Below are positions 34,999-60,009 of a stretch of DNA of 64,000 nt, in pieces (the stretch's first letter is position 1; each line of letters begins with the position of its first letter). The stretch is from a virus: positions 1-64,000 of IMG/VR virus record IMGVR_UViG_3300045131_002929. One strand, given 5' to 3'. The notes under the pieces are model-generated. The model was given only the letters and a program-made list of their open reading frames with translations. It ran no database searches and was not told where the DNA came from. Made by a program: the position numbers and the translations under genes.

Positions 34999-35246
34999 AG
35001 CAGCTGAAGGGCGGGGCCGCCGACGGCAGGCCGGCGCGGACCTTCGACAAGGCCGACCTGGCCAAGGGGCGCGCCGTGGAGCGCGAGCACACGGCCGACC
35101 CGCGGGCCGCGGCCGAGATAGCCAAGGACCACCTGGCCGAGTTCCCGGACTATTACGCCGAGCTGGCGCGGATGGAGGCCAAACTGGAGCGGCGCGAGCT
35201 GAACAAGCGCGCATATCTGCTCGGCTACCTAAGGCGGGACCGCTGA
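34992..35246 (+). CDS. DUF5661-like phage protein
   Basis: LAKGRAVEREHT.D..AAEIAKDHLAEFPDYY..L..ME pattern. Confidence 0.7.
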   Translation: MVEQLKGGAADGRPARTFDKADLAKGRAVEREHTADPRAAAEIAKDHLAEFPDYYAELARMEAKLERRELNKRAYLLGYLRRDR

Positions 35247-38200
35247 TGGCGCCCAAACTCAATTTCAAACCGCACGGCCGCGGCCTGCACCTGGACGCGG
35301 CCTCGAAGGCCCGGGCCACGCGCGTCGTCGAATCGGGCGGCGCGCTGATGTCGCCCGCGCTTTTCGGCGTGTACAAGCCGGCCGCAGTGCCCGCCTCTAA
35401 ATCCGCGTCGGGCGCCGAAGGCCAGTGGGCCGTGGACGAGAACTACTACTACTGGAACGCAGGCGGCCGCTGGCATAGGTCGGCGCTGGCCGCTTGGAGC
35501 CCGGAACTGTTCGGCTCGAGCAGCAGCAGCAGCAGCACAGGCGGCGAAAGCTTCTCGTCGGACAGCAGCTGGGGCACCTCCAGCAGCTCGAACAGCTCCA
35601 GCAGCTCGTCGCTTTCCGACTTGTCAAGCCTGAGCTCCAACTCCTCCAGCTCGTCGAACTCCTCCAGCTCGTCCAGCCAGTCGAGCTCCTCAAGCTCGTC
35701 CAGCAAGTCCAGCCAGTCGAGCTCCTCAAGCTCGTCCAGCCGCGGCGACGACTGCGAATGGATCCAGCGCTCGCCGCCTAAAGGCCCGCCGGCGCCGGGA
35801 CTCTGGTCGGCCTGCGCCATGAGCCGCGGCGGCAGGCTGCGCGCGGCGGCTGAGTATGGCGGCCGCATATGGACGTCCACGGACCACGGCGTGAGCTGGC
35901 AGGGCCGCGGATGGGCCAGCGGCGGCGCCATAGGCGACCTGCCCAAGGATCCGAACACGACGCCCTACGACATGGCGCGGCAATGGTGCCTGCTGACGGC
36001 GGCCGACGACGACAGCCGGCTGGTGGCCGCCGAGGACGGCGGCTTGATATGGGTCAGCACGGACTGCGGCATGCACTGGGCCGCGGGCACGGGCCTGGCG
36101 CCGCGCGAGTGGCGCGGGCTGGCGCTGCGCACCACGGACGGCGTGCGGCTGGCGGCCTTGGCCCTGGACGGCACGCTGGCCCTATCCTCGAACGGCGGGC
36201 AGTCGTGGACCGAATCGGCCGGACCCTGCGTCAACGCCTACGCGCTGGCCGCCGCGGCGGGCGCGACCGGGTCGAACGACATACTGGCCGTGGCCGGCTC
36301 GCCAGGCTACGTGCACATATCCCAGGACTCGGGCGCGACGTGGTCGGCCAGGGAGTCGCTGGACAAGCGCGACTGGCGCGGCCTTGCCATGGACGACGAC
36401 GGCCTTGTGCTGTACGCCTGCGCCGATAAGGAGCACTGCTGGAAATCGCTGAACGGCGGCGTGGCGTGGTCGAAGCTGGAGTCGCTGGGAAGCGGCGACT
36501 GGTCCGACGTGGCATGCGGGCCGGACGGCTCCTGCCTGATGCTGGGCGAGAACGCGGGCGCGCTGCGCGTCAGCTACGACTACGGCGGTAGCTGGCGGCG
36601 CATGGCGGCCGTGCAGCAGGACAACCTGAGCAGCTCCAGCGACGCCGTGAACGGCTGGACCGGCGTGGCCATGTCGGGCACCGGCTTCTACCTGATGGCC
36701 TGCGCGTACGGCGGCGGCGTCTGGACGTACGGATGCCTGAGCTCCACATCCTCGTCCTCCCAAGGCGACGCGTGCGCCTGGGTGGAGCGCTGGCAGCTGG
36801 GCACGCACCTTTGGCGCGCCGTGGCCTACTCGCCGCGCGGCGACCGCTGCGTGGCCGTCGGGCTCGGCGTCGGCGTGTGGCTGGGCGAGTTCCATGGCAC
36901 GCGCTGGAAGGTGTGGCCCGCCCCGCTGCAGCCCGGCCTGCCGCCCGCCTACGCCTCGCAGTCCGGCTCGCCGGAGAACCCCAACATGGACTACAGCAGC
37001 TCGAGCAGCTCGAGCAGCTCGCTGTCGTCGGAGCAGAGCAGGGCCACGAAGGGCTGGAACTGCTGCGCCATAAGCGCGGACGGATCGGTGGCCCTTATAG
37101 GCCAGGACGGCGGCAGCCTGCAGATTACGAAGACCTTCGGCGCCAGCTGGACCGTGGCCGCGGGGATAGCCCGCTGGTCGAGCTGCTCCATATCGGAGAA
37201 CGGCAACAAGATGATAGCCGGCACCAACGGCGGCCGCGTGTGGATCTCGCAGGACAAAGGCACCACATGGGTCGAGCAGACGCGCCTGCCTAGGACGCGC
37301 TGGCTGGCCGTGCTTATGGAGGGCGACGGCCGCAGGGCCTTCGCGGCCAGCAGCATCGGCATGATCTACGGCCTGGGCCTGCGCGACTGGTTCGAATCCA
37401 GCAGCTCCAGCTCCAGCTCGGGATCCGCCGACGACCCGGTGGTGACGCTCGCCGGCCTGCCGCCAGCCAAGACCAACAATAGAACGGCGGCCGTCACCGT
37501 GCTGAGCGGGCCCGACATAGGCCGCGGCCTGGTCACGCATTACGGCTATTCGGTGGACGGCGGCGAATATGAGTTCGAAGTGCCGCTGGCCGAGCCCCTG
37601 CTGCTGGCCAACCTTTCCGAAGGGCCGCACAAACTACGCGTGGTCGGCCGTTACCAGTACGACCTGCACGGCAATACGGGCGGGTATGAGGGGATCGACC
37701 ACCCGCTGGAGCATTCGTGGGCCGTGGACACCGTGCCGCCGCAGGCCGTCACCCTGACCGGGATCTCGCTCGCGCTGGCCAACAGCTCGACGGCCAACAT
37801 CACGGTGCACGCCGCCGCCGACGTGGTCGGCTACCTATGGCGGCTGGACGACGGCCCGTGGGTGGACGACGTGGTGCCGATCGGCGCGCCGCTGATCCAG
37901 CTGACGGGCCTTGCCGAGGGCCGCCATGTGGTGCACGTCAAAGGCGTGGACGCGGTCGGCAACTGGCAGGCGGCCCCCACCGTGACCGACAGCGCGGCCT
38001 GGACCGTGGACACGGTGCCGCCGGCCTACGTGGCCCTTACAGCGCCCGCCGCGCTCGTCACGAACTCGACAGTGGCCGCCTTCACCGTCAGCGGCGCGGT
38101 CGACGTGGTGGCGTACAAGTGGCGGCTGGACGCGGGCGCATGGGGCAACGAGGTGGCCATATCCAGCCCGGTCATAAGCCTAGCCGGCCTGGCCGAGGGC

Positions 38201-38974
38201 GTCCACCAGCTGTTCGCGCTGGGCCGCGACGCCGCCGGCAACTGGACGGCCGCGGAAGCCGCCAGCCAGCAGTGGACGGTCGACCTGACCCCGCCCGCGG
38301 CCACGGTGGCGGGCTACCCGGTCGGACCGGTCAACTACGCGTCCACCAACATAGCCGTGGGCGGCGCCGGCGTGGTGTCGTACCAATACAAAGTCAACGC
38401 GGCCGGCACGTATACGGCCGACATACCCGTAGGCACGCCGCTCGTGGCCACCGGACTGGCCAACGGCTTGAACAGGATCTACGTCCGCGGCAGGGACGCC
38501 GCCGGCAACTTGCAGCCCGCCGCGAGCGCCACGCAGACCGGCGAATGGACCGTGGACACCACGCCGCCGCCAGCCGTGACGCTGACGGGCGGCTTGACGG
38601 GCCTGACGACCGCGAAGGCCACCGTCTTCACAGTCGCCGCCGACGCTGACGTGGCCGCCTACAAATGGGAACTGTTCACGAACGGGACCGGCCACGGCCT
38701 GAGCCAGGCCATACCCATATACCTGACCGACTCCATCCACATACTCGACACGATATCGGAGGGCGAGCATTACATTAGGGTCATAGGCTATGACCTGGCG
38801 GGCAACCCGCAGCCGACGCCCACCATAAGCCAAACCTGGACGCTGGACACGACGGCGCCCGTGGCGCAGCTCAGCGGGGTGCCCGTAGGGGCCACATCGA
38901 CGCGCGGCGCCACCGTGACCGTAGGCGGATCAGGGGTCGTCAAATACAAATACGAGCTGGTGTACCATGTTTAG
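35246..38974 (+). CDS. Adhesin-like virion protein: poly-Ser linkers, BNR/Asp-box propellers, Ig-like repeats; ends in half an Ig domain
   Basis: S-x-D-x-G-x-x-W boxes; four full repeats ending W[AT][VL]D[TL]; terminates ...VGGSGVVKYKYELVYHV. Confidence 0.85.
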   Translation: MAPKLNFKPHGRGLHLDAASKARATRVVESGGALMSPALFGVYKPAAVPASKSASGAEGQWAVDENYYYWNAGGRWHRSALAAWSPELFGSSSSSSSTGGESFSSDSSWGTSSSSNSSSSSSLSDLSSLSSNSSSSSNSSSSSSQSSSSSSSSKSSQSSSSSSSSRGDDCEWIQRSPPKGPPAPGLWSACAMSRGGRLRAAAEYGGRIWTSTDHGVSWQGRGWASGGAIGDLPKDPNTTPYDMARQWCLLTAADDDSRLVAAEDGGLIWVSTDCGMHWAAGTGLAPREWRGLALRTTDGVRLAALALDGTLALSSNGGQSWTESAGPCVNAYALAAAAGATGSNDILAVAGSPGYVHISQDSGATWSARESLDKRDWRGLAMDDDGLVLYACADKEHCWKSLNGGVAWSKLESLGSGDWSDVACGPDGSCLMLGENAGALRVSYDYGGSWRRMAAVQQDNLSSSSDAVNGWTGVAMSGTGFYLMACAYGGGVWTYGCLSSTSSSSQGDACAWVERWQLGTHLWRAVAYSPRGDRCVAVGLGVGVWLGEFHGTRWKVWPAPLQPGLPPAYASQSGSPENPNMDYSSSSSSSSSLSSEQSRATKGWNCCAISADGSVALIGQDGGSLQITKTFGASWTVAAGIARWSSCSISENGNKMIAGTNGGRVWISQDKGTTWVEQTRLPRTRWLAVLMEGDGRRAFAASSIGMIYGLGLRDWFESSSSSSSSGSADDPVVTLAGLPPAKTNNRTAAVTVLSGPDIGRGLVTHYGYSVDGGEYEFEVPLAEPLLLANLSEGPHKLRVVGRYQYDLHGNTGGYEGIDHPLEHSWAVDTVPPQAVTLTGISLALANSSTANITVHAAADVVGYLWRLDDGPWVDDVVPIGAPLIQLTGLAEGRHVVHVKGVDAVGNWQAAPTVTDSAAWTVDTVPPAYVALTAPAALVTNSTVAAFTVSGAVDVVAYKWRLDAGAWGNEVAISSPVISLAGLAEGVHQLFALGRDAAGNWTAAEAASQQWTVDLTPPAATVAGYPVGPVNYASTNIAVGGAGVVSYQYKVNAAGTYTADIPVGTPLVATGLANGLNRIYVRGRDAAGNLQPAASATQTGEWTVDTTPPPAVTLTGGLTGLTTAKATVFTVAADADVAAYKWELFTNGTGHGLSQAIPIYLTDSIHILDTISEGEHYIRVIGYDLAGNPQPTPTISQTWTLDTTAPVAQLSGVPVGATSTRGATVTVGGSGVVKYKYELVYHV

Positions 38975-41891
38975 CGGCGAGATCGACGTCGGCGTGCCGA
39001 TCATCATACCCTCCGGCTCGCCGGACGGCTCGTACACCGTGCGCGTGGTCGGCTGCGACGCTGCCGGCAACTGGCAGCCGGTGGAGCTGGCCACCGAGCC
39101 GCCCGAGTGGACCGTCTACACCAAGTTCAACATGACCATGGCCACGCCGCTTGGCGTCGGCACGGCCAGCCCCGCCACGGCCCAGTCAGGCCCTGGCGAG
39201 GCGGTGGCCATAAGCGCCTTGGCCGGATCCGGCTACATATTCTCCCGGTGGGTCGCCACGGGACCGGCCACATTCGAGGACTACGAATCCGCCGTGACCA
39301 CGGTCACGCTGGCCGGCGACGCCTCCGTGCGCGCCGTGTTCGGCACGCTGGTCGTGAGCTACACGCTGAACTACTCGGCCCAGGCCCACGGGGCCGTAAC
39401 CGGCGAGGCCGTCCAGGTGGTAGTCCGGGGCGCGGGCGGATCTTCCGTCACGGCTGTGGCCGAAGCCGGCTATCATTTCAGCGGATGGAGCGACGGGGTC
39501 ATGTCTGCCACCCGCGTGGACTCCAACGTCATGGCCAGCATCGCCGTATCCGCGCACTTCGCGCTGGACGCCGCGCTGTACACCGTGATCTTCGCCGCGG
39601 GCGCGCACGGCTCGCTCTCGGGCGACCTGACTCAGTCGGTGGCTTACGGCGACAGCTGCACAAGGGTGTTCGCCCTGTCCGCGACAGGCTACCGATTTTC
39701 CAGATGGAGCGACGGCTCGACCTATTCGTACCTCACGTTGACCGGCGTGACGTGCGACATGACGCTGACCGCTTTCTTCGAGATAGAGACAGGATATAGG
39801 TACTTGAAGTACCAGGCGTCGACGGGCGGCAGCATAGCGGGCAACGCCGACCAGTCGATCCCCACCGACAGCACAGGCTCTCAAGTCACGGCCGTCGCTC
39901 TGGCCGGCTATCACTTCAAAATCTGGAGCGACGGGTCGGCGCGGGCCACCAGGACGGACACTGCCGGCTATGACAAGACGTTCACGGCCTATTTCGAAGT
40001 GAATTTCTTCACCGTGGCCTACGCGGCCACGGATGGCGGCTCCGTGACGGGAACCCTGATCCAGAAGATCAACGCCGGCAGCTTTGGGTCCGAAGTCGTG
40101 GCCACGCCCGACGAAGGGCACCATTTCACCTACTGGAGCGACGGGCTGGCCACGGCCGCACGGACGGAGTACGACGTCACCTACAACATGACGCTGACCG
40201 CCAACTTCCTGCCCGACGCCAGCAACGTCACGCTGGCCTACTCCGCGGGCCTGCACGGCGCGATCGAAGGCGTGGCCACGCAATCCGTGCCCGTTGGCGG
40301 CTCGGGCTCGCAGGTAACGGCGGTTCCGGACGCGGGCTACAGATTCGCCTACTGGGACGACGGCGTGGGCACGGCCGCGCGCACCGACTCGAACGTCATG
40401 TTCGGCAAGGCCCCCACCGCCTACTTCGAACGTTTGAAATACACCCTGGAGTATACGGCGGAATACGGCGGCGAGATCCAAGGGACCACTCTGCAGACCG
40501 TGTCCCCGGGCGGCGACGGCACTTACGTGGCGGCCGGGGCCCATACTGGATACCGTTTCATCAAGTGGTCGGACGGCCTGGCCACAGCGGGCCGCGTAGA
40601 CTGGAACGTGACTTGCAGCTTATCCGTGTCCGCTTTCTTCGATATCATCAAAAGCGCATACGTGCTGACCTACACGGCCGGAATGGGCGGCTCGATATCA
40701 GGCTCGAAGACGCAGCTAGTCGCCAGCGGGGGCACTGGATCCTCTGTGACCGCCATGCCCGCCGCGGGCCATCATTTCGTGATGTGGAGCGACGGGCTGG
40801 CCACAGCCGCCCGGACGGACTCCTTAGTGTACTGCGACAAGGCGCTCACGGCCTACTTCGCCGCCGACTCGGCGGCTTATCTGCTTGCATACGCCACGGA
40901 CGGCAACGGGACGCTGGCGGGCGCCGCGGTCCAGTCCGTAGCGTCCGGCGGCTCCGGCACCGAAGTCGTGGCCGTGGCGAACACGGGATACCACTTCAGC
41001 GGTTGGAGCGACGGGTACGCGCGGGGGGCCCGCACCGACCTGAACGTCAAAATGGATATAACGGCCACGGCCATGTTCGCGCTGGGCGGCCAGAACTGCG
41101 TGGTGACATATTCCGCCGGGCCATGCGGCTCGGTTACCGGAATACTCACCCAGTCGGTGGCCCAGGGCGGCGCGTGCACGGCCGTGACGGCCGTGCCGGA
41201 CTCCGGCTACCACTTCGTGACGTGGAGCGACGGGTCGACGTCGGCCACCAGGACCGACCTAGGCGTGGCCTGCGACCGAACGTACATGGCCGTGTTCGAC
41301 CCGAGCGTGTACACGGCCGACTATAGGGCAGGGCCGAACGGGTCTATCAGTGGATCAGCGCACCAGTTGATATCGCACGGTCACAATGCCAGCTCAGTGA
41401 CGGGCGTGCCTTCAGGTTATTATAGAAAGTCCCACTGGAGCGACGGATACCCGTTGACGGCGAACATGGGCGTGCGCGTAGACCAAGCCGTGGACCACAA
41501 CATAGACGCCGCGATCTACTTCTATCTGCCAACTTACAGCGTCTCAGTCTCCGCGGGGGCAGGCGGCACGGCCACCCCTGACACCGTGGGCGGCGCCATC
41601 GCCATGGCGGGCGAAACCGTGGTCGCGCTGCGCGCCGAGCCCGCCGTCGGATACGTGTTCAGCAAGTGGACGGTGCTGCGCGGCAGCGCGCCCGCTGCCC
41701 CTACGGCTGCGGACACTACGGTCACGGTGGGCGCCGACACCTCGATAAGGGCCGACTTCGCCGTCCTCGTGCCGAGCGCCGCCTTCGTAAGCGGTGTTCC
41801 GACCGGAACCACGAACGTGCAAGGCGGCACAGTCGTCGTCGGTGGGTCGAACGTGGTATCGTATAAGTATGAAATAGTCAAAGTCAGTTAG
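38967..41891 (+). CDS. InlB-B/Flg_new-type repeat protein flanked by two half Ig domains
   Basis: Ten ~73-aa repeats with G[YH]xxxxW[SD]DG plus two divergent ones. Confidence 0.85.
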   Translation: MFSGEIDVGVPIIIPSGSPDGSYTVRVVGCDAAGNWQPVELATEPPEWTVYTKFNMTMATPLGVGTASPATAQSGPGEAVAISALAGSGYIFSRWVATGPATFEDYESAVTTVTLAGDASVRAVFGTLVVSYTLNYSAQAHGAVTGEAVQVVVRGAGGSSVTAVAEAGYHFSGWSDGVMSATRVDSNVMASIAVSAHFALDAALYTVIFAAGAHGSLSGDLTQSVAYGDSCTRVFALSATGYRFSRWSDGSTYSYLTLTGVTCDMTLTAFFEIETGYRYLKYQASTGGSIAGNADQSIPTDSTGSQVTAVALAGYHFKIWSDGSARATRTDTAGYDKTFTAYFEVNFFTVAYAATDGGSVTGTLIQKINAGSFGSEVVATPDEGHHFTYWSDGLATAARTEYDVTYNMTLTANFLPDASNVTLAYSAGLHGAIEGVATQSVPVGGSGSQVTAVPDAGYRFAYWDDGVGTAARTDSNVMFGKAPTAYFERLKYTLEYTAEYGGEIQGTTLQTVSPGGDGTYVAAGAHTGYRFIKWSDGLATAGRVDWNVTCSLSVSAFFDIIKSAYVLTYTAGMGGSISGSKTQLVASGGTGSSVTAMPAAGHHFVMWSDGLATAARTDSLVYCDKALTAYFAADSAAYLLAYATDGNGTLAGAAVQSVASGGSGTEVVAVANTGYHFSGWSDGYARGARTDLNVKMDITATAMFALGGQNCVVTYSAGPCGSVTGILTQSVAQGGACTAVTAVPDSGYHFVTWSDGSTSATRTDLGVACDRTYMAVFDPSVYTADYRAGPNGSISGSAHQLISHGHNASSVTGVPSGYYRKSHWSDGYPLTANMGVRVDQAVDHNIDAAIYFYLPTYSVSVSAGAGGTATPDTVGGAIAMAGETVVALRAEPAVGYVFSKWTVLRGSAPAAPTAADTTVTVGADTSIRADFAVLVPSAAFVSGVPTGTTNVQGGTVVVGGSNVVSYKYEIVKVS

Positions 41892-41899
41892 GAGCGGCC

Positions 41900-44800
41900 A
41901 TGGCCTGGAGCGACGAAATACCTGTCGGGACGCCGATAACCATCCCCTTGGACCTGGTGGACGGAGTGTACCGCATCCTGGTGATAGGTAAGGCCCCCGC
42001 GGGCAACTGGCAGGCCACCGCGCTGACCAGTTCCAACTGGACGCTGGACACGACGGCGCCCACGGCTGTGATCGGGTCGCCGCCGGCCAGTCTCACAAAC
42101 CTCACCTCTTTCTCGATCGCTATAACGGGCGCAGGGGTAACCCAGTACAAATACGCATTGAACGGCGGCGCGTACAGCCAGCCCAGTAGCATAAGCTCGC
42201 GCATCGCCCTAAGCGGGCTCGCCGATGGAGCTTACTCGCTGGACGTGGTCGGGCGCGACGCGGTCGGCAACTGGCAGACGACGCCCACGACCTACAGTTG
42301 GGTAGTGGACACCACGGCCGCCGTGGCCGTGCTCTCCAATACCCCGCAGCCCGTGACCCAAGAAACTTCGGCGACTATCTCCGTGGACGGAACCGACGTG
42401 GTGGCCTATATGTATAAGCTGAATGGCGGAGCATGGTCCGCCTCCACCCCGGTGGCCACGCCTATAGCTCTGGCTAACCTTACTGAGGGGACCTATTCGC
42501 TATCCGTCAAAAGCGTGGACGCGGCCGGCAACTGGCAGGTGGCGCCCACGACCTACAGTTGGGTAGTGGACACCACGGCCCCCATCGCGGTGCTGTCCAA
42601 CGCTCCACAGCCCGTGACCGCGGCGACTTCGGCGACTATATACGTGGGCGACGACGTGGTGGCCTATATGTATAAGCTGAATGGCGGAGCATGGTCCACT
42701 TCCACCCCGGTGGCCACGCCTATAACCCTGTCGAACCTTACTGAGGGGGCTTACACGCTGGACGTGGTCGGGCGCGACGCGGCCGGCAACTGGCAGGTGG
42801 CGCCCACGACCTACAGTTGGGTAGTGGACACCACGGCCCCCATCGCGGTGCTGTCCGGAGTTCCGCAGCCGCTATTCCTAACGATTGATGTTAGTCATGC
42901 GCATATATACGTGGGCGGAACCGACGTGGTGGCCTATATGTATAAGCTGAATGGCGGAGCATGGTCCACTTCCACCCCGGTGGCCACGCCTATAGGCGTG
43001 GACCTTTACCACGGAGCTTACTCTCTGGAAGTGGTCGGCTGCGACGCGGTCGGCAACTGGCAGACGACGCCCACGACCTACAGTTGGGTAGTGGACAAGC
43101 CGCTGTTTGCTGTGCTGTCCGGCGCTCCGGAGGAACATACCAAAGAGACTTCGGCGACTATATACGTGGGCGGCGACGACGTGGTGGCCTATATGTATAG
43201 GCTGAATGCCGGGTTATGGTCCGCCTCCACCCCGGTGGCCACGCCTATAACCCTGTCGAACCTTACTGAGGGGGCTTACACGCTGGACGTCAAAGGCTTG
43301 AATCCGGAGAGCAGCTTGCCGACGTGGAACCGCCTGCACTACTGGGTGGTGGACACGACGGCGCCCACGGCTGTGATCTGGTCGCCGCCGGCCAGTCTCA
43401 CAAACCTCACCTCTTTCTCGATCAATATAACGGGCGCAGGGGTAACCCAGTACAAATACGCGTTGAACGGCGGCGCGTACAGCCAGCCCATTAGCATAAG
43501 CTCGCACATCGCCCTAAGCGGGCTCGCCGATGGAGCTTACTCTCTGGAAGTGGTCGGCTGCGACGCGGCCGGCAACTGGCAGACGACGCCCACCACGGCC
43601 AGCTGGACGGTCGACGCCACGGCCCCCATCGCGGTGCTGTCCAACGCTCCACAGCCCGTGACCGCGGCGACTTCGGCGACTATCTCCGTGGGCGGAACCG
43701 ACGTGGTGGGATATGCGTATAGGCTGAATGGCGGAGCATGGTCCAATTACGTCCCGGTGGCCACGCCTATAACCCTGTCGAACCTTGCTAAGGGGGCTTA
43801 CTCGCTGTACGTGGCCGGCCACGACGCGGCCGGCAACTGGCAGGTGGCGCCCACGACCTACAGTTGGGTAGTGGACGAGGCGCTCACGGCCGTGCTCGGC
43901 GGCAGCGTGCCGAGCGGGGTCTACACCCAGTATGTCCAAGGGATAAGCGTGGGCGGCTACGGCGTGACTCACTATAAATATTCGCTCAACGGCGGGGCCT
44001 ACACCGACGAGGCGCCTATAAGCGCGGCTATAGATCTGCCTATGTTGCCGGACGGCGAATACACGCTGGACGTCATAGGCAGGGGGCTGGCGGGGAACTG
44101 GCTGGGCACCCCCACCCACGCCGCCTGGTCTTTACTGATACCGCCGCCTGTGGCTACGGTAAGCGGCATCCTCAACCCTTCTCTCAGCACTGTAAACGCC
44201 TCCATAGGCGGAGCAAGGGTGGCCGCGTTTAACTACAAGCTAGACCAGATGACTACTATAGGTCCCGTCGTCGCAAGCGGGTACGGGCTCAGTCTGAACA
44301 TCGAGCCCAACGGGCCGCATCAGTTGTCTGTGTGGGGAATCGACCTCGCAGGCCGGGTGCAGACTACGCCTACGGTTGTAGAGTGGACCGTGGACTCCGC
44401 CCAGCCTGTATTCAACCTAGTCTATGACGCCGGCGGCGCGAACGGCACCGTTCCGTTCGATAACAAATGGTATTTTATGAACAGCAAGGTGTATCTAGCT
44501 AGCGCGTCCACTTTGAACTACCCCTCTAAAAAGTTCAACAGCTGGTTTATGTCCGACTACGGCTCTAGGAATCCCGGTGAATACATAATGACGCCTACCG
44601 CAGCGCCCCAAGGCGGGCATATTATTTTCTGCCAAGCCCAGTGGACCATTTTTAATTGGTATGCCGCTAATTCCAGTATTCTGTATATCACCGGTGTTGT
44701 CAATAACGTGCCCCAGAGCGGAACCGTCACAATACCCTATTCCTTAGGGCACCAAGCTGTAACTGTAATTGGCAACAATTGTTTTAAAGATATGTCGGCC

Positions 44801-45298
44801 ATATCCAGTGTGGTTTTGAACTGCACCTCGCTTAGCGAAATACAAAGCCAGGCGTTCGCCGGCTGCAGCGGAATGACTTCCATAACCACGCCTAACTCCC
44901 TGACCCGCTTAGGCGTTAGCGCGTTCGAAGGGTGCTCCAGCCTGACGGCCTTTACGATCCCTGTCGACTTGACCGTTATTCAAAACCGCGCCTTCTACGG
45001 CTGCTCCAGTATATCTTCAATCAATATAGGCGCCACGAATGTTAGCTTGGTAGGCGAGGCCGCCTTCCAAGGCTGCGCCAGCTTGAGCGACTTGTCTTTC
45101 GGTACGACGCTGCAGGTTGTAGGCGCGAACGCTTTCACGGGCACTGGCATCACCCATGCACACTTCAAAGGCAACGCGCCGTCCATTCAATCCACATCCT
45201 ACCCGGCAGGCACCGTGCTGCATTATGTTCCAGGCAAGACCGGCTGGACTAATCCGATGGCAGGTTTCACGACCGTAGGCGACGAAACACCCTACTAG
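41900..45298 (+). CDS. Ig-like tandem-repeat protein with C-terminal BspA-type leucine-rich repeats
   Basis: About nine ~87-aa repeats; AFxGCxxL LRRs; AGGAG RBS; begins with half an Ig domain. Confidence 0.85.
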   Translation: MAWSDEIPVGTPITIPLDLVDGVYRILVIGKAPAGNWQATALTSSNWTLDTTAPTAVIGSPPASLTNLTSFSIAITGAGVTQYKYALNGGAYSQPSSISSRIALSGLADGAYSLDVVGRDAVGNWQTTPTTYSWVVDTTAAVAVLSNTPQPVTQETSATISVDGTDVVAYMYKLNGGAWSASTPVATPIALANLTEGTYSLSVKSVDAAGNWQVAPTTYSWVVDTTAPIAVLSNAPQPVTAATSATIYVGDDVVAYMYKLNGGAWSTSTPVATPITLSNLTEGAYTLDVVGRDAAGNWQVAPTTYSWVVDTTAPIAVLSGVPQPLFLTIDVSHAHIYVGGTDVVAYMYKLNGGAWSTSTPVATPIGVDLYHGAYSLEVVGCDAVGNWQTTPTTYSWVVDKPLFAVLSGAPEEHTKETSATIYVGGDDVVAYMYRLNAGLWSASTPVATPITLSNLTEGAYTLDVKGLNPESSLPTWNRLHYWVVDTTAPTAVIWSPPASLTNLTSFSINITGAGVTQYKYALNGGAYSQPISISSHIALSGLADGAYSLEVVGCDAAGNWQTTPTTASWTVDATAPIAVLSNAPQPVTAATSATISVGGTDVVGYAYRLNGGAWSNYVPVATPITLSNLAKGAYSLYVAGHDAAGNWQVAPTTYSWVVDEALTAVLGGSVPSGVYTQYVQGISVGGYGVTHYKYSLNGGAYTDEAPISAAIDLPMLPDGEYTLDVIGRGLAGNWLGTPTHAAWSLLIPPPVATVSGILNPSLSTVNASIGGARVAAFNYKLDQMTTIGPVVASGYGLSLNIEPNGPHQLSVWGIDLAGRVQTTPTVVEWTVDSAQPVFNLVYDAGGANGTVPFDNKWYFMNSKVYLASASTLNYPSKKFNSWFMSDYGSRNPGEYIMTPTAAPQGGHIIFCQAQWTIFNWYAANSSILYITGVVNNVPQSGTVTIPYSLGHQAVTVIGNNCFKDMSAISSVVLNCTSLSEIQSQAFAGCSGMTSITTPNSLTRLGVSAFEGCSSLTAFTIPVDLTVIQNRAFYGCSSISSINIGATNVSLVGEAAFQGCASLSDLSFGTTLQVVGANAFTGTGITHAHFKGNAPSIQSTSYPAGTVLHYVPGKTGWTNPMAGFTTVGDETPY
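42040..43880 (+). repeat. Near-identical ~260-bp tandem DNA repeats encoding Ig-like domains
   Basis: ggcaactggcag..gcccacgacctacagttgggtagtggac recurs repeatedly; the unit at about 42045 is nearly duplicated at about 43350. Confidence 0.9.
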
Positions 45299-45312: not shown

Positions 45313-46671
45313 ATGGCCTACTCAGAATCATCCATGAGCTCCCTGTCCTCGGACTCCACCGAGCTGCTGAACTCCACCAGCTCGGACTCCTCAGCCTCCT
45401 TCGCCATGGGCAAGGGCGCGGCTGGCAGCTTCGCCTGGTGGCCCACGCGGGCCCCCGTGGCGGACTGGCGCGCCATGGCCGCCAGCCACGACTGCTCGCT
45501 CATACTGGCCGCCGCGGACCGCGAGGCCGGCGGCGGGCTGCACGTGAGCCAGGACGGCGGCCACACCTGGCTGCCCTGCTGGAGCTCCTACCCTAGAAGC
45601 TGGCGGGCCGTGGCCGTGTCGCGCAGGGGCGAGATGATGGCCGCCTGCGACTCCATGGGCATGATCTACGCCACCCACGCCGCCTACGACTCGTCGTCCA
45701 CGCCCGGCGACGCCTGGCACTGGAAGGCGCAGCCCTCCGCGGGCGAGCGCGACTGGCGCGGGGTGGCCATAGGCGAGGAAGGCAATTTCCTGGTGGCCGT
45801 GGCGGCCGGCGGGCGGCTGTGGACCAAGTACTGCCAGGACAACGACATGAGCACCTCGAGCGTCAGCGTGGCCGGCGACAGCAGCTCCTCCGCGAACGAC
45901 TGCGTAGTCTCGTTCAACAGCAAGGGCGGGGCCGCCGTAGAGCCGCTGCGCGTGAACGCCGGCTACTCCATAGCGCTGGGCGAATGGCCGAGGCCGACGC
46001 GGGCCGCGCGCTCGTTCGGCGGGTGGTGCTCCGACTTCCAGTGCCTGACTTTGTTCGACGAGTCGGCCGTCGTCAACTACGACCTGACTTTGTTCGCCAA
46101 GTGGAACAAAGCCACGGGCGCGGCCTTCCACGCCAACGGCGGCGGCGACATACCGGATCAGAGCGCGACGCTTGTCAACGGGCAGTATTACGTGACGGCG
46201 CCGCCGGCGCCGGTAAGGGCCGGCCACACCTTCCAAGGGTGGTATGCTGACGAACTGCTGCAAGGGGCCTTATTCGACTTCGCGGCGCCCATATCAGGAT
46301 TCCGCGACCTGTACGCCAAGTGGCAGATCGACACCTACGCCGTGACTTTCAACAGCAACGGCGGCACGGCCGTGGGGCCGCAGTCGGTGGTGTTCAACAA
46401 CCAAGTAGCCAAGCCGGCCGACCCCGTGTTCGCCGGCTACAGGCTGATCGGGTGGTTCCTAGGGTCGGCGGAATCGTCCTACGATTTCAATTCGGGGGTC
46501 CAAGGTGCTATGGTTCTTAAGGCGAAGTGGACCATATACATTCCAAGCGCAGCCAGCGAGAACCTGTTCGACGACGGGGCGCAGAACCTTATGATGTCCG
46601 CCGGCGACGACCACGAGATAGAGATGAACGAGGCCATCGCGCTGTCCCAAGGCGGCTGCGAGCCTTTCTAA
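45313..46671 (+). CDS. Ser-rich, propeller plus Listeria/Bacteroides (InlB-B) repeat protein
   Basis: Ser-rich N-terminus; three F.[SA].GG...P......F.GW...L.AKW repeats. Confidence 0.8.
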   Translation: MAYSESSMSSLSSDSTELLNSTSSDSSASFAMGKGAAGSFAWWPTRAPVADWRAMAASHDCSLILAAADREAGGGLHVSQDGGHTWLPCWSSYPRSWRAVAVSRRGEMMAACDSMGMIYATHAAYDSSSTPGDAWHWKAQPSAGERDWRGVAIGEEGNFLVAVAAGGRLWTKYCQDNDMSTSSVSVAGDSSSSANDCVVSFNSKGGAAVEPLRVNAGYSIALGEWPRPTRAARSFGGWCSDFQCLTLFDESAVVNYDLTLFAKWNKATGAAFHANGGGDIPDQSATLVNGQYYVTAPPAPVRAGHTFQGWYADELLQGALFDFAAPISGFRDLYAKWQIDTYAVTFNSNGGTAVGPQSVVFNNQVAKPADPVFAGYRLIGWFLGSAESSYDFNSGVQGAMVLKAKWTIYIPSAASENLFDDGAQNLMMSAGDDHEIEMNEAIALSQGGCEPF

Positions 46672-46685
46672 CCAGGAGAATCGAC

Positions 46686-47006
46686 ATGTTCGTACGCAAG
46701 GTAATGGCGCTGGGCACGTTGCCCGAAGCCGCCGACGCCGTGTACACGGCCCCCGCCGACGTCACCGGGCTGATCCACAACGTCACGCTGCACAACAAGT
46801 CCGTCAACGCGCAGACCGTCACGCTGCAGTACCACTCGGGGTCCGTGGACTACCAGATGTACAGGCTGCAGATCCCGGCGGCCGACACGGTCAGCCTGGG
46901 CTTCTACAACGAGGGCTTCGTGGTCATGACCGGATGCTCGCTGCGCGGCTACGCCACGGAGGCCGGGGCCGTCAACGTGAAGGTCGACGGAACCGAGGAG
47001 TCTTAA
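46686..47006 (+). CDS. Small beta-sandwich virion protein
   Basis: AGGAG RBS before ATG 46686; VYTAPA...NVTLHN pattern. Confidence 0.75.
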   Translation: MFVRKVMALGTLPEAADAVYTAPADVTGLIHNVTLHNKSVNAQTVTLQYHSGSVDYQMYRLQIPAADTVSLGFYNEGFVVMTGCSLRGYATEAGAVNVKVDGTEES

Positions 47007-47007
47007 T

Positions 47008-50000
47008 ATGCTCAAGCAGGCCTCCAAGCGCAGGGCCGGCGACGGCAGGCCTGTGCCCCATTTCGACGTCGCCGACATGGGCGCGAGCTCGTGGTCGGAC
47101 AAGACGACCAAGCTGCTGCTCCACTTCGACGGGTCCATGCTGGACGGGTCGCTCTACTCAAGGTCCGTGCTGCCGGCGGGCGACGCGCGCCTGGACTCCA
47201 CGTCGTCCAGCCTGGGCGGCTCGTCGCTGCGCGTGACCGGCGCCTCGCATCTGGACGTCATGCTGGGACCGGACGCGCTGCCGGGTTCGCGCAGCCTGTC
47301 CATCGAGGGCTTCTTCCTGGTGGACTCCGTGAGCTCGACGTTCAGGGTGTGGGAGTGGTTCCAGGACGCCGCGAACAACCTGGCGCTCGACTACGTGGCC
47401 AACACGGGGTGGAAGGTGAGCAGGCTGGACGCGGGGACGCAGACGACTCTGCTGATAGGGTCGGCGGCCGCCATCCAGACGTGGCTCCACGTCGCCGTGA
47501 CCCGGGTCGGGACCACTTGGCGCCTACTGGTCGACGGGGTCGAACAGGCCGCTTTGGCCTACCAGTGGTCACCCGTGTGGACGTTCGGCTCCACCTTCAG
47601 GCTGGGCCGCAACTACGCCGCCGCGTCGGCTATGGTAGGCAACGTCGACGAGGTCAGGCTGGTCGTGGGCGGGCCCGTGGTGGCTTCCGTGCCTACGGCC
47701 AGGTATGGCGTCGCCGAGCTGCTGACCGGCAGGGGCGCGCAGCTCGTCGACATTAACGGCGCCGGAGTCTACTACTGGGGCGTCTCGCCCGAGGGCGGCG
47801 GCGAACCCGTCGCCTGCAGGTGCGGCGACTACCTGCTGGTCTTCGGCCGGCGCCTGACGCGCGGCGGCTCGATCTTCGAATGCGTCGTCGACACGATGGC
47901 GCTGCAATGGCTGGGCAACGTCAGCTGGGGCGGCTACGACTACGAGCCCTGGCGCGGCTACGTCGAAGCGGTCGGCCAATGCCTGGTCGTAGGCGCCAGG
48001 GCGCTAATGGTGCGCTCCGCCGGCAACCCTGGGCTTATGCTTGGCGACGCGCTAAGTTCGTACTCCGTGAACGGTTACGCCGCGGTAAGCAATAGCGTCG
48101 TCAGGGATAACGACTGCTTCTACGTGGGCAACGCCGGATCCATACGCATGGCCAAATTGGGCGGCGGCGCGTTGTTCACATGGTTCGACGGCATATCGAC
48201 CACTTATCTCACGCACATGCCGGCGGCCTGCATAACCGCCGCGGGCGCCGACAACGGGGTGCGTGTGGCCGCGTTGCGCTCTGGGTCGCAGTACGGCTCC
48301 GGGTGCCAGGCGCTGGTGGTAGGGCGCGGCGGGCTGGTCTCGGCCTACTCGTCGCTCATCGTGACGCTGACGGATCCGATCACCCGGCTGTCCGCGGACG
48401 TGAGCCTGGCCCAGCTGCCTGAGCTTTTCGTGGGCGTGTCCGCGTTCTGTTGGAAGGGCGTGTGCTCCGCCACCCATGTCTACCTGGCGCTGAACTCGCT
48501 CAACGGGTCGCCCGCCGGGATAATCGTCAGGCTGCCGATGGCGGATTGGTCGCTGGCCGGCGTGGAGGCCTTGCGCCTGCACTCGGTCGACGCGCGGCTG
48601 GTCAACATATCGGGCCTGGCCTATGACGGCCGGCACGTGTACTGCCTCGCGTCGGGCCTTGCCGGCGGCGCGCTGGCCAAGGTCGACGAGCTTAACTTCA
48701 CAGCGTCCGGCGTGGAGGTGGTGGAGCTGGGCCCCAACAGCTGGGTGTGGTCCGAGCTTGTGGACTTCGATTCCTACTTGTGCGCCGTGTCCAGGGCGCG
48801 GGCGGTCAAGATTCCCTGCCGCGTCCACTCCGCCGCCTATTTCGAATGTTCCGACGCAGAGCTGCCCTACCCGCTGCCTATTTCGACGGTATCGCTGCTG
48901 CAGATGACGGGCGGTGCGGCTTTCGACGAGACGCTGCGCGGATCGCGCGTGACATCCACGAACGTGGCCTTCGCCGCGTCGGGCGGCAAGTTCACAGGCA
49001 AGGCCTCCATCGTGGGCACTAATTCCTTGCTGACGCTGTACCCGAGCCCGGCCGGCCCGAACTTCCCCATATGCCGCCCCGGCGACTACAACACGGTGGG
49101 CGCCTACACGCTGGACTTCTGGCTGAAGTTCGACGCGCTGCCGACGGACTACAGAACGGTGTTCAACACAGGCGTCGAGGACTATGGGTTTATGGCCCTT
49201 TATTTTAAGCCCGGGAGTTCCCCCAAGATGATTTGCAAAACACATTACGAAGGCGAGTCTCGTAAGCTGCTTGCTGATACCCCGGTCGGCACGTGGTTCC
49301 ATGTGGAGTTTTCCGTGGAGAACCGCGTTGGCCGAAACAGTGGAGCGCGGCTATTTTTGAACGGTAAATCGCAGGTAGACGTTTCTCTGACGGTGTCGCC
49401 TGTTTTAGCCTTGGCCGGCGGCGGCGCGGCTATGAGCTATGGCGGCAGCTTGTTCCTAGTGGCCAGCGGCGGGAATTACTCCGCCTTGTCGGCGCCCAGC
49501 GCCAACATAACCACGCTGGGCGTGTCGCCCAATGGGCAGTTCATGCTCGCGGCCGTGTCCGGCGGCAGCATGTACGCGTCCATCGACGGCGGGGCCAGCT
49601 GGACGACTAGGTCCGCGGCGGGCGTGTTGTCGTGGACTAACCTGATATGCCGCGACGACGGCAGCTGCGTGGCTAGCGTGTGGAACAACGCGACGTACTA
49701 TGAGTCTTCCAATTTTGGCGAATCGTGGTCCGCCAAGTCCGTCGGCACAACCACCACCCGCATAGTCATGTCGTCGGATGGTAGGTACAGGCTTGGCGCC
49801 GGGTCGACTGATGGATGGTATTACGGCAATCCCACCATGCACATATCTTCCGATTACGGCGCCACATGGTCCACTTATAATTACGGCTCAGTCGGCGCAT
49901 TTACGAATAGCGTGGCAATGTCCGCGTCCGGCGCCGTCATGGCCGGCGCGGCGGCGTTGTACGCGGCGAATCTGCCTACCCACGAACGCTACGTGTATAT

Positions 50001-50502
50001 CAGCGTGAACTACGGCGCCACATGGACGCAGCTTACGGGGGCAGGCGGCCGTAACAGCTGGACATGCTGCGCGGTGTCGGCGGACGGCGCGAAGGCAGCC
50101 TTCGCGGCTGTGGGCTCGCGGCTATGGATCTACACCGTGGCGACCGGAACGTTCGACGAGATCACCGACGTGCCCGAGAAGCCGGCTTGGAACTCCGTGG
50201 CGTTGTCCGCGGACGGCTCCAAGGCTTACGCGTTGTCCGGCGACGGCTATCTGTACCGAGTCGATGTGACGGCTGGCACCTTGGAGCCGTCGAACGGCGT
50301 TTTGAATTTTCAGGCCATAGTCGGAGCGGCCGTAGCAAACTATTGGGGGGTGAATCAGTGCGGCATCGGCTACCACAATCAATTCTTCTTCGGCAACGCC
50401 TGGCAAGCCGCCTGGCCCGGCATGCACGTGTCGGACATAAGGCTGACGAACGACGTGCTGCACACCGCCGATTTCACGCCGCCAGCGCAGAAGACGCTTT
50501 GA
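47008..50502 (+). CDS. LamG/concanavalin-like plus propeller receptor-binding protein
   Basis: TKLLLHFDG, TWLHVAVTR..TWRLLVDG, GNVDEVRL; a second LamG (YTLDFWLK...SDIRLT...DFTPP) is interrupted by Asp-box repeats. Confidence 0.8.
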   Translation: MLKQASKRRAGDGRPVPHFDVADMGASSWSDKTTKLLLHFDGSMLDGSLYSRSVLPAGDARLDSTSSSLGGSSLRVTGASHLDVMLGPDALPGSRSLSIEGFFLVDSVSSTFRVWEWFQDAANNLALDYVANTGWKVSRLDAGTQTTLLIGSAAAIQTWLHVAVTRVGTTWRLLVDGVEQAALAYQWSPVWTFGSTFRLGRNYAAASAMVGNVDEVRLVVGGPVVASVPTARYGVAELLTGRGAQLVDINGAGVYYWGVSPEGGGEPVACRCGDYLLVFGRRLTRGGSIFECVVDTMALQWLGNVSWGGYDYEPWRGYVEAVGQCLVVGARALMVRSAGNPGLMLGDALSSYSVNGYAAVSNSVVRDNDCFYVGNAGSIRMAKLGGGALFTWFDGISTTYLTHMPAACITAAGADNGVRVAALRSGSQYGSGCQALVVGRGGLVSAYSSLIVTLTDPITRLSADVSLAQLPELFVGVSAFCWKGVCSATHVYLALNSLNGSPAGIIVRLPMADWSLAGVEALRLHSVDARLVNISGLAYDGRHVYCLASGLAGGALAKVDELNFTASGVEVVELGPNSWVWSELVDFDSYLCAVSRARAVKIPCRVHSAAYFECSDAELPYPLPISTVSLLQMTGGAAFDETLRGSRVTSTNVAFAASGGKFTGKASIVGTNSLLTLYPSPAGPNFPICRPGDYNTVGAYTLDFWLKFDALPTDYRTVFNTGVEDYGFMALYFKPGSSPKMICKTHYEGESRKLLADTPVGTWFHVEFSVENRVGRNSGARLFLNGKSQVDVSLTVSPVLALAGGGAAMSYGGSLFLVASGGNYSALSAPSANITTLGVSPNGQFMLAAVSGGSMYASIDGGASWTTRSAAGVLSWTNLICRDDGSCVASVWNNATYYESSNFGESWSAKSVGTTTTRIVMSSDGRYRLGAGSTDGWYYGNPTMHISSDYGATWSTYNYGSVGAFTNSVAMSASGAVMAGAAALYAANLPTHERYVYISVNYGATWTQLTGAGGRNSWTCCAVSADGAKAAFAAVGSRLWIYTVATGTFDEITDVPEKPAWNSVALSADGSKAYALSGDGYLYRVDVTAGTLEPSNGVLNFQAIVGAAVANYWGVNQCGIGYHNQFFFGNAWQAAWPGMHVSDIRLTNDVLHTADFTPPAQKTL

Positions 50503-50527
50503 CAAAACGTAAAACAGAGTAAAAAAA

Positions 50528-52006
50528 ATGACAGATGGCGTGATCTACTTCAACGTCGGCACCAAGTGCCTCCACAGGCTGGCCGTGTCGCTGCGCTCAA
50601 TGCGCAGAATACACTCAGGGCCCTGCGCCGCACTTTGCGCCGACGAATGCCCGCGATGGTTCGCGGAGCTGGCCCGCGCGCTCGACGTCGAACTCCGCGC
50701 CTTCGATCCTGAAGGGCTGCCCCCGCTGGTATTGAAGGCGCGGCTGCACCGCCACAGCCCTTTCGACCGCTCGCTCTTCATAGACGCGGACACGCTGGTG
50801 ACCGGCCGCTTCGACGAGCTTTTCGACCTGATAGGCGAATATGGCTTCGCCGTGGGCCGCTTCGCCGGATGGCGCACCAAGGGCCGGACCATCGCCAGCC
50901 GCATAGCGGCCATGGCCCCGGCGTGCGGGCCGGCCATGGTGGCCGCCGCCTTGGCCTACGGCCCGGCTGTGAACACCGGGGTGTTCGGCTTCACGAAGGA
51001 TTCGAAATTTTTAGAGCCGTGGGCGGACCTTACGCTGCGCGCCCACGAGCTCGGGTGCTCCCGCATACCGGACGAGCTCGCGTGCCAGATGCTGCTGCCC
51101 GCCATCCGCAGCGCGACTTTCGACGAACGCTACGGCGAGTCGGTGAAATTCGGCAAGCTGGGTCCGACCACCCGCATAGTCCATTACCACGGCCGCAAGC
51201 ACGCGCAGGGCTTCCCGGCATGCGGCGAGTGGAAGCGGGCCTACTGGGAGCTCATGGCCGAATGCACGGACGAGGTCCGGGCCGGCCTGGCCGCGGACCT
51301 CGGCGACAAGACGCTGCGCAACTACCGGCGGCGCGAGGCGCTGACCTTCGTCACGGCGGTGGATCCGGGCTATCTGGCCAGCCTGCGGGCCAACTTTCCG
51401 CTTATGGCGGAGGTCGCCGGAATAGCTGGCGAGCCTTGGATCTGCTATGTGAACGGGATTCCCATCGACGACCCGCGGCTTGACTTCCTGAAGGGCCGCG
51501 CCCTTGTGCGAGCCTGGGACTTCGACGCGCCCACCCAGCGCGAGCGGATGCTGACCTGTTTCGTGAAGGCCGCGCCGTTCGACGTCAAGACGCCGCGCTG
51601 GGTCAAGGTGGACGCTGACGTCCGGCCGAGTGGCGCCGCTTTCAAATTCGAGGCGGGCTGGCGCGGCGCGGCGCTCGTAGGCCACCGCTGGCATTACACC
51701 AAGCCTGGCCGATGGCTGCGCGGCCTGGAGGAATGGGCGGACGCCCACCCAGGTTTCGCGGGCAGCGCCCGGCTGTTCACGGCGGGCCATCTGGTGGACG
51801 CCGACGCGCAGCTTCGCTACGGCCACCCCAGGATAGCCTCGTTCATGTGCGCGCACGACACGGCGTTCACGCGTAGATGCGCCGAGCTGGCGGGCCCGGG
51901 GCGGCTGCCGGTGCCCAGCCACGACACTTTCCTATGGTACTGCGCGGCGCGGCTGGGCGAGCCTATCGCCCGTACCAACTTCAAGAAGAAGGGCTTCCAC
52001 CCATGA
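50528..52006 (+). CDS. Two-domain GT-A glycosyltransferase (GT8-like N-domain)
   Basis: SPFDRSLFIDADTL, VNTGVFGF, IVHYHG; second DxD in WVKVDAD. Confidence 0.75.
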   Translation: MTDGVIYFNVGTKCLHRLAVSLRSMRRIHSGPCAALCADECPRWFAELARALDVELRAFDPEGLPPLVLKARLHRHSPFDRSLFIDADTLVTGRFDELFDLIGEYGFAVGRFAGWRTKGRTIASRIAAMAPACGPAMVAAALAYGPAVNTGVFGFTKDSKFLEPWADLTLRAHELGCSRIPDELACQMLLPAIRSATFDERYGESVKFGKLGPTTRIVHYHGRKHAQGFPACGEWKRAYWELMAECTDEVRAGLAADLGDKTLRNYRRREALTFVTAVDPGYLASLRANFPLMAEVAGIAGEPWICYVNGIPIDDPRLDFLKGRALVRAWDFDAPTQRERMLTCFVKAAPFDVKTPRWVKVDADVRPSGAAFKFEAGWRGAALVGHRWHYTKPGRWLRGLEEWADAHPGFAGSARLFTAGHLVDADAQLRYGHPRIASFMCAHDTAFTRRCAELAGPGRLPVPSHDTFLWYCAARLGEPIARTNFKKKGFHP

Positions 52007-52734: not shown

Positions 52735-52744
52735 CAGTAAAAAA

Positions 52745-59236: not shown

Positions 59237-59291
59237 GCAACCGACCGGCGCCTAAACGGGGCGCCGGTCATAAAAGAAAGGCAGATAAAAC

Positions 59292-59888: not shown

Positions 59889-59920
59889 AAAGTAACGACC
59901 TTCGACAAGACAGCGCGAAC

Positions 59921-59962: not shown

Positions 59963-60009
59963 AATCAAGCGCAGGCCGTGATCCGTACGGCCCTCATCAG
60001 CGGGGAACC

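Follow-up and report, generated by a model that had tools for sequence, protein, structure and literature searches.

Ig-like domains divided at the same turn by two consecutive gene boundaries of a phage: a candidate half-domain joint between three large proteins

An uncultured phage known from a 146,617-bp genome (IMG/VR record IMGVR_UViG_3300045131_002929) carries three consecutive large genes that meet within Ig-like domains. The window, that is, the whole stretch of DNA analysed here, comprises positions 1 to 64,000 of this record. The question raised by this locus is whether the two boundaries are accidents that broke one giant gene, sites where ribosomes change frame, or true ends of proteins that are joined again through the divided domain. 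A first-pass annotation, made by a model from the letters and the open reading frames (ORFs), had claimed that the domains are split at the same turn at both junctions. The profile matches end and start at model positions 41|42-47 at both sites and bear this out. The peptide strings that it had quoted are all present in the ORFs, and the ORF coordinates agree with its junction geometry, an 8-nt overlap with a +1 shift at the first junction (J1) and an 8-nt gap with AGGAG and a -1 shift at the second (J2). The features are collected in Table 1. Our preferred reading, to which we give a probability of about one half, is that three separately translated proteins are linked head to tail by rebuilding the Ig-like domain.

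Table 1. Genes, domain arrays, half-domains and junctions of the locus, in positions of the window; HMM positions refer to the 87-position domain model
Feature	Position	Strand	Description
Gene 1 (P0001)	35246..38974	+	1242 aa; Ser-rich linkers, BNR/sortilin-like repeats, Ig-like domains
Gene 1 Ig array	37430-38836		5 intact Ig-like domains, followed by the N-half of a sixth
J1 N-half	38837..38971	+	HMM positions 1-41, first three strands; ends 4 residues past strand C
J1 junction	38967..38974	+	ATG (38967) of gene 2 overlaps gene 1 TAG (ends 38974) by 8 nt; gene 2 in +1 frame
Gene 2 (P0002)	38967..41891	+	974 aa; C-half domain, 11 Flg_new_2 (InlB B-repeat-like) domains, N-half domain
J1 C-half	38967..39107	+	HMM positions 47-84, start of gene 2
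J2 N-half	41757..41888	+	HMM positions 6-41, end of gene 2
J2 junction	41889..41899	+	TAG 41889-41891, AGGAG 41890-41894, 5-nt spacer, ATG at 41900; gene 3 in -1 frame
Gene 3 (P0003)	41900..45298	+	1132 aa; C-half domain, Ig-like array, C-terminal BspA-type LRR_5 region
J2 C-half	41900..42037	+	HMM positions 42-85, start of gene 3
Gene 3 Ig array	42038-44383		9 intact Ig-like domains

The repeated unit is an 87-residue Ig-like (FN3-like) domain of the Big_13/Y_Y_Y type. P0003 scored above the Pfam gathering scores of both Big_13 (PF19077; 80.3 bits, cut-off 27) and Y_Y_Y (PF07495; 63.9 bits, cut-off 26.6), and P0001 stayed under the Big_13 cut-off of 27 with 22.7 bits. AlphaFold2 (AF2) modelled an intact copy with a pLDDT of 88.4, placing strands at residues 11-13, 25-30 and 36-41 and then at 50-51, 56-58, 68-73 and 84-86. 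The best Foldseek match of the intact copy was the Y_Y_Y domain of BT4663 (4a2m), and its structural neighbours were FN3/monobody and Y_Y_Y folds. A search of the 146,617-bp genome with the domain HMM found no copies beyond the 14 intact and the split ones. No signal peptides were found in P0001-P0003.

To place the cuts, we trained an HMM on the 14 intact domains alone, with the split copies left out. It matched the end of gene 1 (iE 2.5e-10), the start of gene 2 (iE 1e-6), the end of gene 2 (iE 2.8e-4) and the start of gene 3 (iE 7.7e-8). Both cuts fall in the loop that the AF2 model places after the third strand, between residues 36-41 and 50-51, as in split FN3, where a cut in the loop past strand C leaves ABC and C'EFG fragments. 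Two random breaks in an 87-position domain would lie no more than about 3 positions apart in roughly 8% of cases, and in fewer still if breaks were allowed anywhere in the ~3,350 codons. The shared position on its own is thus suggestive, but not overwhelming, evidence of non-random placement.

Judged by their residues, the half-domains are free of decay. Of 35 consensus residues, the two split domains retain 25 and 21, compared with 20-35 in the intact copies and 22-27 in gene 1's own. The gene 2 and gene 3 proteins begin 1-2 residues ahead of a conserved aromatic residue: the Met-Phe of the J1 C-half places an aromatic residue at the site of Trp or Tyr in intact copies, and the Met-Ala-Trp of the J2 C-half aligns with their Gly-Ala-Trp. 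When J1 was read through in silico, the joined domain aligned with the intact copies, its turn at most one residue shorter, and was predicted to form the same sandwich (pLDDT 71.6, pTM 0.59). The first-pass annotation had also given the halves features of their own. Two features indeed occur in the two split domains alone, namely a Val that follows the YxYx[LI] strand and an Ile-Pro within the fifth strand, but the second half of the fourth intact domain of gene 1 is similar, so the halves are private only in part. Protein identity between the J1 and J2 regions is ~45-51% and their DNA has diverged, which indicates that neither was recently copied from the other. In the domain tree, the split domains stand in a polytomy with those of gene 1, leaving their sister relation unsettled, so that a single old origin of the split is neither supported nor excluded.

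J2 looks like an adapted gene boundary. Compared with the intact paralogue p1_d4, it carries a 14-nt insertion that holds the stop codon TAG and AGGAG, and the ribosome-binding site formed in this way, partly within the 8-nt gap (41892-41899), is as good as any in this phage. Upstream of the ATG of gene 3, and in its frame, the former turn is still visible as Ala-Ala codons. J1 is different, as the gene 2 start is preceded by no more than a weak purine/GGTG element and there is no clear ribosome-binding site; because of this, we infer that gene 2 may be translated by coupling to gene 1. The DNA upstream of the starts is locally AT-rich, J1 lying in the lowest 8.7% and J2 in the lowest 2.5% of 36-nt windows, but this is a weak signal as this strand is AT-rich in intact copies as well. 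Folding of the junction RNA is weaker than that of shuffled sequences (z +0.95 and +1.5). Promoters and terminators beyond chance, phase-variation repeats and inteins were not seen at either junction.

These observations bear on the possibility that one giant fibre gene was broken twice by recent frameshifts of no functional relevance. The halves would then be intact for want of time, the locus would be an incipient pseudogene or a defective variant, and the downstream products would be unattached or unneeded. A single indel separates each junction from a fused ORF, no relative was found that could show persistence in this singleton phage, J1 has no good ribosome-binding site, and frameshifted Ig arrays do exist in other metagenome contigs (L008 and L009). 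However, breaks that arose independently would be expected to hit one and the same 5-residue turn twice in less than about 8% of cases, and the combination of a stop, AGGAG and a correctly spaced ATG in the J2 insert is unlikely to come from one random event. Moreover, in both downstream frames the first possible start is an ATG directly before the conserved aromatic residue, ~6.3 kb of ORF downstream of J1 stays open, and the divergence between the two regions argues against one being recently copied from the other. We consider recent breakage unlikely, although it deserves to be taken seriously.

It could also be argued that the stops are false and result from indel errors or mis-joins in repeated Ig-coding DNA. 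The source is a metagenome assembly, and the repeats of gene 3 do confuse assemblers, as the final 200 nt of an independent JGI metagenome contig (L001) switch to another repeat copy. That same contig nevertheless reproduces the J2 sequence identically, with no indel. The junction sequences are unique and not derived from repeats, and no homopolymers occur at J1 or J2. Other ORFs of this genome run unbroken up to 2,305 codons, which indicates that indel errors are rare, and what J2 has gained over the fused form reads as a gene boundary. An artefact is the least probable of the explanations that we weighed.

A further explanation is that ribosomes shift frame at the junctions (+1 at J1 and -1 at J2), or couple there, to yield a fused polyprotein of ~3,350 residues. 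In 2006, Fraser et al. reportedly described phage structural proteins that gain Ig-like domains through programmed frameshifting, and Listeria phage PSA is an example of such frameshifting. These cases resemble the present locus in having Ig-like domains in phage structural genes and a frame change at a gene boundary; there, a whole domain is added via a slippery site, whereas here the frame changes within the domain, the downstream genes have independent starts, and neither slippery site nor structure was found. Specifically, the 16-nt window of J2 allowed for a -1 shift contains no X XXY YYZ heptamer. J1 has no properly spaced Shine-Dalgarno (SD) sequence for a frameshift, and its last sense codon and stop (GUU UAG C) are only loosely like a prfB-type +1 site. 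Downstream of both junctions, RNA structure did not exceed that of shuffles (z 0.23 and -0.03), so that neither junction combines a slippery site with a stimulatory structure or a spaced SD. In addition, the conserved aromatic residue comes from Met-Phe, which a ribosome shifting at GUU-UAG would bypass, and J2 has a canonical initiation site. The annotation had argued against a single error or recoding rule as the cause of both junctions; this argument is right, and the two junctions would need opposite shifts. We think that recoding is very improbable.

We searched for relatives and for other split connectors. IMG/VR, searched with P0001, P0002, P0003 and the tail sheath, and INPHARED, searched by blastn, yielded no relative. 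A scan of JGI metagenomes found just InlB-repeat proteins that are 27-30% identical and do not have this Ig domain. In sets of 5.8 and 1.8 billion proteins, the only matches were fragments of the same phage and generic repeat proteins, and the 90% clusters contained two short contigs besides that of the window and nothing else. The two C-halves were also used in an exhaustive profile search; of its 1,637 matches, the best 150 included no split connector. Two proteins among these 150 (P0207 and P0251) were considered as halves starting at the turn and rejected; longer frames are open upstream, the starts are non-ATG codons chosen by the gene caller, and there are frameshifts at domain borders. 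When the second-half signature that the split domains share was written as a degenerate DNA motif, IMG/VR gave 7 matches, all by chance.

Half-domain reassembly would work as follows. The three ORFs would be real late genes of a contractile-tailed phage, each translated separately, and an ancestral array of Ig-like domains (Big_13/Y_Y_Y, FN3-like) would have been broken at two places, both of them in the loop that follows the third strand. The upstream protein would end in strands A-B-C and the downstream protein would begin with C'-E-F-G, and during or after translation the two fragments may assemble into one complete beta-sandwich in which strand B pairs with E, and C with F, between the chains. 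This non-covalent joint would chain the products of genes 1, 2 and 3 into a fibre of ~3,350 residues, with the BNR/Ser-rich part proximal, the InlB repeats in the middle and the Ig/LRR part distal. The gene order and the tight junctions, with a stop/start overlap at J1 and an 8-nt gap with a strong ribosome-binding site at J2, would favour co-translational pairing.

Half-domain complementation is what the first-pass annotation had proposed, as a natural connector that would allow modular extension. The anatomy that it described is right and the mechanism is the best fitting one and has precedents; association itself we can only infer, with weak support from co-folding. Co-folding the J1 halves gave an ipSAE of 0.40 (best control 0.00), a value that may reflect memory of the Ig fold, as such models tend to reassemble the halves of any known fold. 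At least 96% of the contacts were common to the runs, and the pLDDT of the partners was at least 73. In the calibration, 58 of 80 solved complexes reached the mark, as did 2 of 110 mismatched pairs, counts that are rough here as our own alignments were used; scores of 0.60 or less occurred in just 7 of the 80 solved complexes and in both false passes.

Gene 2 has both types of half, a C-half at its start and an N-half at its end. Alternative pairings are therefore conceivable: the halves of separate real proteins might pair with another virion protein, swap between copies of one protein or serve as disordered docking tails. Against such arrangements, no other gene in the genome has any part of the domain, and the order of N-half and C-half across each junction exactly rebuilds one domain. 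We regard pairing away from the gene neighbour as improbable.

How would such a joint compare with known systems? In chaperone-usher pili, incomplete Ig-like folds are completed by the neighbouring subunit, by donor-strand complementation or exchange, giving head-to-tail fibres. There, the subunits are small and repeated, with a single missing G strand and an N-terminal extension, one strand is donated, and a periplasmic chaperone and an usher are needed. In contrast, half a domain and not one strand is missing here, and Pfam and PHROGs gave no chaperone or usher matches among the neighbouring genes. A phage example is the baseplate tripod of Lactococcus phage Tuc2009, in which a C-terminal hairpin of BppU completes Ig-like domain 2 of BppA in a titin-Ig-like composite (PMC4742702). 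As would be the case here, this is a joint of the adsorption apparatus in which polypeptides from two neighbouring genes form one beta-sandwich. Tuc2009 donates a 25-residue hairpin to the C-terminal domain of the partner, whereas here the domain is divided near its middle (3 + 4 strands), the halves are collinear from C to N terminus, and the division occurs twice in series.

The closest comparison is an engineered one. According to PMC11666773, the fragments of an FN3 monobody whose CD loop is cut (Asn45|Ser46) recover their fold and form a functional domain when mixed 1:1 (Dutta et al. 2005), and the CD-loop cut is the most efficient monobody split. The split monobody has a far lower stability, with a Tm of ~45 compared with 78 C for the intact one, which shows that a joint made of half-domains may be weak. 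Both systems have the same class of seven-stranded beta-sandwich, whose cut follows the third strand near the midpoint (residue 45 of ~94 there and 41-46 of 87 here). The monobody split is man-made and concerns a single domain, whereas the present one would be natural, lies at two consecutive gene boundaries and would join proteins of ~1,000 residues, with their association predicted.

A more speculative idea, which we think is rather unlikely, is that the half-domain pairs are a reusable plug and socket. Gene 2, with a plug at one end and a socket at the other, would then be an optional or iterable extender that allows one operon to yield fibres of varied length and composition (1-3, 1-2-3 or 1-2-2-3), and new modules could be swapped by recombination at the connector.

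If the halves reassemble, this would be a natural counterpart of the engineered split FN3, a genetically encoded and enzyme-free connection between the ends of very large proteins. This would account for fibres longer than any single gene product, and distal receptor-binding modules would be exchangeable while the proximal anchor stays undisturbed. The pairs would also offer small orthogonal tags (~45 + 47 residues) for protein engineering. For the annotation of phage fibre loci, gene boundaries within a domain need not be errors or pseudogenes.

Two consecutive gene junctions in this phage, J1 between genes 1 and 2 and J2 between genes 2 and 3, each lie inside one 87-residue Ig-like domain. 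The breaks had been described in the first-pass annotation, whose coordinates and peptide strings all proved correct on re-checking. We made an HMM only from the 14 intact copies of the domain and scanned the whole genome in six frames. HMM positions 1-41 are found at the C-terminal end of gene 1, 47-84 and 6-41 at the N- and C-terminal ends of gene 2, respectively, and 42-85 at the N-terminal end of gene 3; the same scan found domain pieces in no further ORF. When an intact copy was modelled with AlphaFold2 (pLDDT 88.4, pTM 0.78), three strands (11-13, 25-30, and 36-41) preceded a turn and four (50-51, 56-58, 68-73, and 84-86) followed it, and therefore both cuts fall in the loop following the third strand. 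By this model, strands A-B-C stay with the upstream protein and strands C'-E-F-G with the downstream one. The nearest folds in Foldseek were the BT4663 Y_Y_Y domain, FN3/monobody, and PKD domains, and the nearest solved sequences were PKD domains.

Fibre genes and neighbouring features of the operon
Feature	Coordinates	Strand	Length	Content
Gene 1 (P0001)	35246-38974	+	1242 aa	BNR/sortilin-like repeats and Ser-rich linkers, then Ig-like domains
Gene 2 (P0002)	38967-41891	+	974 aa	11 Flg_new_2 (InlB B-repeat) domains
Gene 3 (P0003)	41900-45298	+	1132 aa	9 Big_13/Y_Y_Y Ig-like domains and a BspA-type LRR_5 region
Recent block duplication in gene 3	42038-43864			Ig-like domains
Downstream adhesin-like protein	45313-53752 region		452 aa	Flg_new repeats
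Downstream adhesin-like protein	45313-53752 region		1164 aa	Laminin_G_3 and BNR-like repeats
Tail-sheath gene (PHROGs)	56570-59236	+

The source virus record is one contig of 146,617 bp, and the window covers its first 64 kb. The operon that begins with gene 1 reaches the tail-sheath gene, and the phage is therefore contractile-tailed. It is very divergent; the majority of its large structural ORFs have no PHROG match, and relatives of the sheath were not found in IMG/VR. Among the large ORFs tested, PHROG matches were limited to the tail sheath, an SbcC-like nuclease, and a DnaB-like helicase (56570-64000, L017, L018). Genes 1 to 3 carry adhesin-type domains, have no signal peptides, and are best read as encoding virion fibre proteins. 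Gene 1 has an ambiguous start (35246-35820), as the public call (P0189) has 1051 aa and the longest ORF additionally includes an N-terminal part with a long poly-Ser tract. The two adhesin-like proteins that follow also have no signal peptides, and beyond them are genes with a sialyltransferase-like PHROG match; no split domain was found at the junctions in that region.

The split pattern is genuine, with nothing that plainly marks it as an artefact, and we consider an artefact very improbable. Contig L001 (2,165 bp; JGI metagenome 3300044991) spans 40066-42230 with zero indels, and thus J2 is reproduced in a second assembly. It has 3 differences in all, each within the last 75 nt, where the contig moves over to a different copy of the repeat. 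The longest uninterrupted ORFs in the genome reach 2,305 codons, so random indel error is rare, and neither homopolymer nor repeat-derived sequence was found at J1 or J2. Within the block duplicated in gene 3, domains 1 and 6 differ very little (branch lengths in the tree of about 0.06-0.07), and domains 2, 3, and 7 group. At its end, L001 passes from copy 1 into copy 6, which shows that assemblies of this block can be chimeric. In two unrelated metagenome contigs (L008, 5630-6100; L009, 1-600), the frame changes that break Ig-domain arrays lie between domains rather than within one, and these interruptions may be sequencing errors or pseudogenes. No relatives were found by searching with the three fibre proteins, the sheath, and a DNA motif specific to the connector, or by an exhaustive profile search; all hits were same-phage pieces, generic repeat proteins, or chance matches. 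Two proteins with apparent starts at the same turn (P0207 and P0251) were rejected as gene-calling artefacts.

The two junctions are built differently. At J1, the ATG of gene 2 (+1 frame) and the TAG of gene 1 lie in an 8-nt overlap, and 13 nt separate the last strand-C codon from the Ser codon after the conserved aromatic position, versus 15 nt in intact copies. Read-through with a one-base skip aligns to the intact copies with a turn shorter by at most one residue, places the Phe following the initiator Met at the conserved Trp/Tyr, and is predicted as the same sandwich at lower confidence (pLDDT 71.6). The homologous spacing at J2 is 32 nt. Relative to an intact paralogue (p1_d4, the fourth Ig-like domain of gene 1), J2 has a 14-nt insertion bearing a TAG stop and an AGGAG motif, followed by the old turn's two Ala codons in the gene 3 frame and then by ATG, a layout that results in Met-Ala-Trp in place of Gly-Ala-Trp. 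With its 5-nt spacer, this AGGAG is a ribosome-binding site equal to any in the operon; we estimate the chance of such a site preceding a given ATG at about 1%. J2 shows signs of being a gene boundary under selection. In the frames of genes 2 and 3, the ATG is the earliest possible start after the previous in-frame stop.

A ribosomal frame shift at the junctions is likewise very improbable. The GUU UAG C context at J1 is loosely prfB-like, but an upstream Shine-Dalgarno element at proper spacing is absent, and the shift would skip Met-Phe, the source of the conserved aromatic residue. At J2, a -1 shift would be confined to 16 nt (41873-41888) that contain no X XXY YYZ heptamer. The RNA 3' of the junctions folds no better than shuffles (z of 0.23 and -0.03). 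The junction regions are less structured than shuffled sequence (z of +0.95 and +1.5), which suits initiation sites, and no promoter or terminator was found at J1 or J2.

The main rival, that these are two recent, inconsequential frameshifts, seems unlikely to us. Across the 35 consensus columns on which nine or more of the 14 intact copies agree, the J1 domain keeps 25 residues and the J2 domain 21, compared to 20-35 in the intact copies, which themselves defined the consensus, and 22-27 in gene 1's own five. The turn Gly is the only consensus residue missing at both junctions. The split domains share 45-51% identity, at most marginally above their identity to other copies, and their DNA has diverged. 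The maximum-likelihood tree places them in a polytomy with the gene 1 domains and therefore supports neither a single origin with duplication nor two origins over the other. Two states found in no intact copy are shared by both: Val immediately following strand C and, in the fifth strand, Ile-Pro.

For the J1 halves, of 45 and 52 residues, co-folding with alignments of the matching halves from all copies gave an ipSAE of 0.40 across three runs, compared to 0.00 for the best of three controls, and was graded as weak support. The runs had at least 96% of contacts in common, with a partner pLDDT of 73. When the method was calibrated, 58 of 80 solved complexes passed the threshold, as did 2 of 110 mismatched pairs, with scores of 0.60 or lower in only 7 of the 80 and in both false passes; these counts apply only roughly here because custom alignments were used. 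As the fold is well known, the prediction may just reassemble a familiar domain; it gives a small push toward pairing of the J1 halves, not a demonstration. That the half-domains engage in other pairings appears quite unlikely.

There are precedents for such a split domain. A monobody (FN3 scaffold) whose CD loop was opened at Asn45/Ser46, topologically the same cut as here, refolds at 1:1 peptide mixing and binds its target, with a Tm of about 45 C versus about 78 C when intact (PMC11666773, 2024); that paper cites Dutta et al. (2005) for the earlier finding that no other fragments complemented as efficiently. The baseplate tripod of phage Tuc2009 contains a composite similar to a titin Ig domain, in which a beta-sheet of BppA domain 2 is completed by a C-terminal BppU hairpin of 25 residues (PMC4742702). 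One Ig-like domain made from two gene products is therefore already known in a phage adsorption device. We found no description in the literature of a half-and-half, collinear, serially used domain split. The most economical mechanism, to which we give a probability of about 0.5, is that the domain would be rebuilt non-covalently across each junction, chaining the three proteins as one fibre. Compared to the known systems, this is a new form of inter-subunit beta-sandwich completion.
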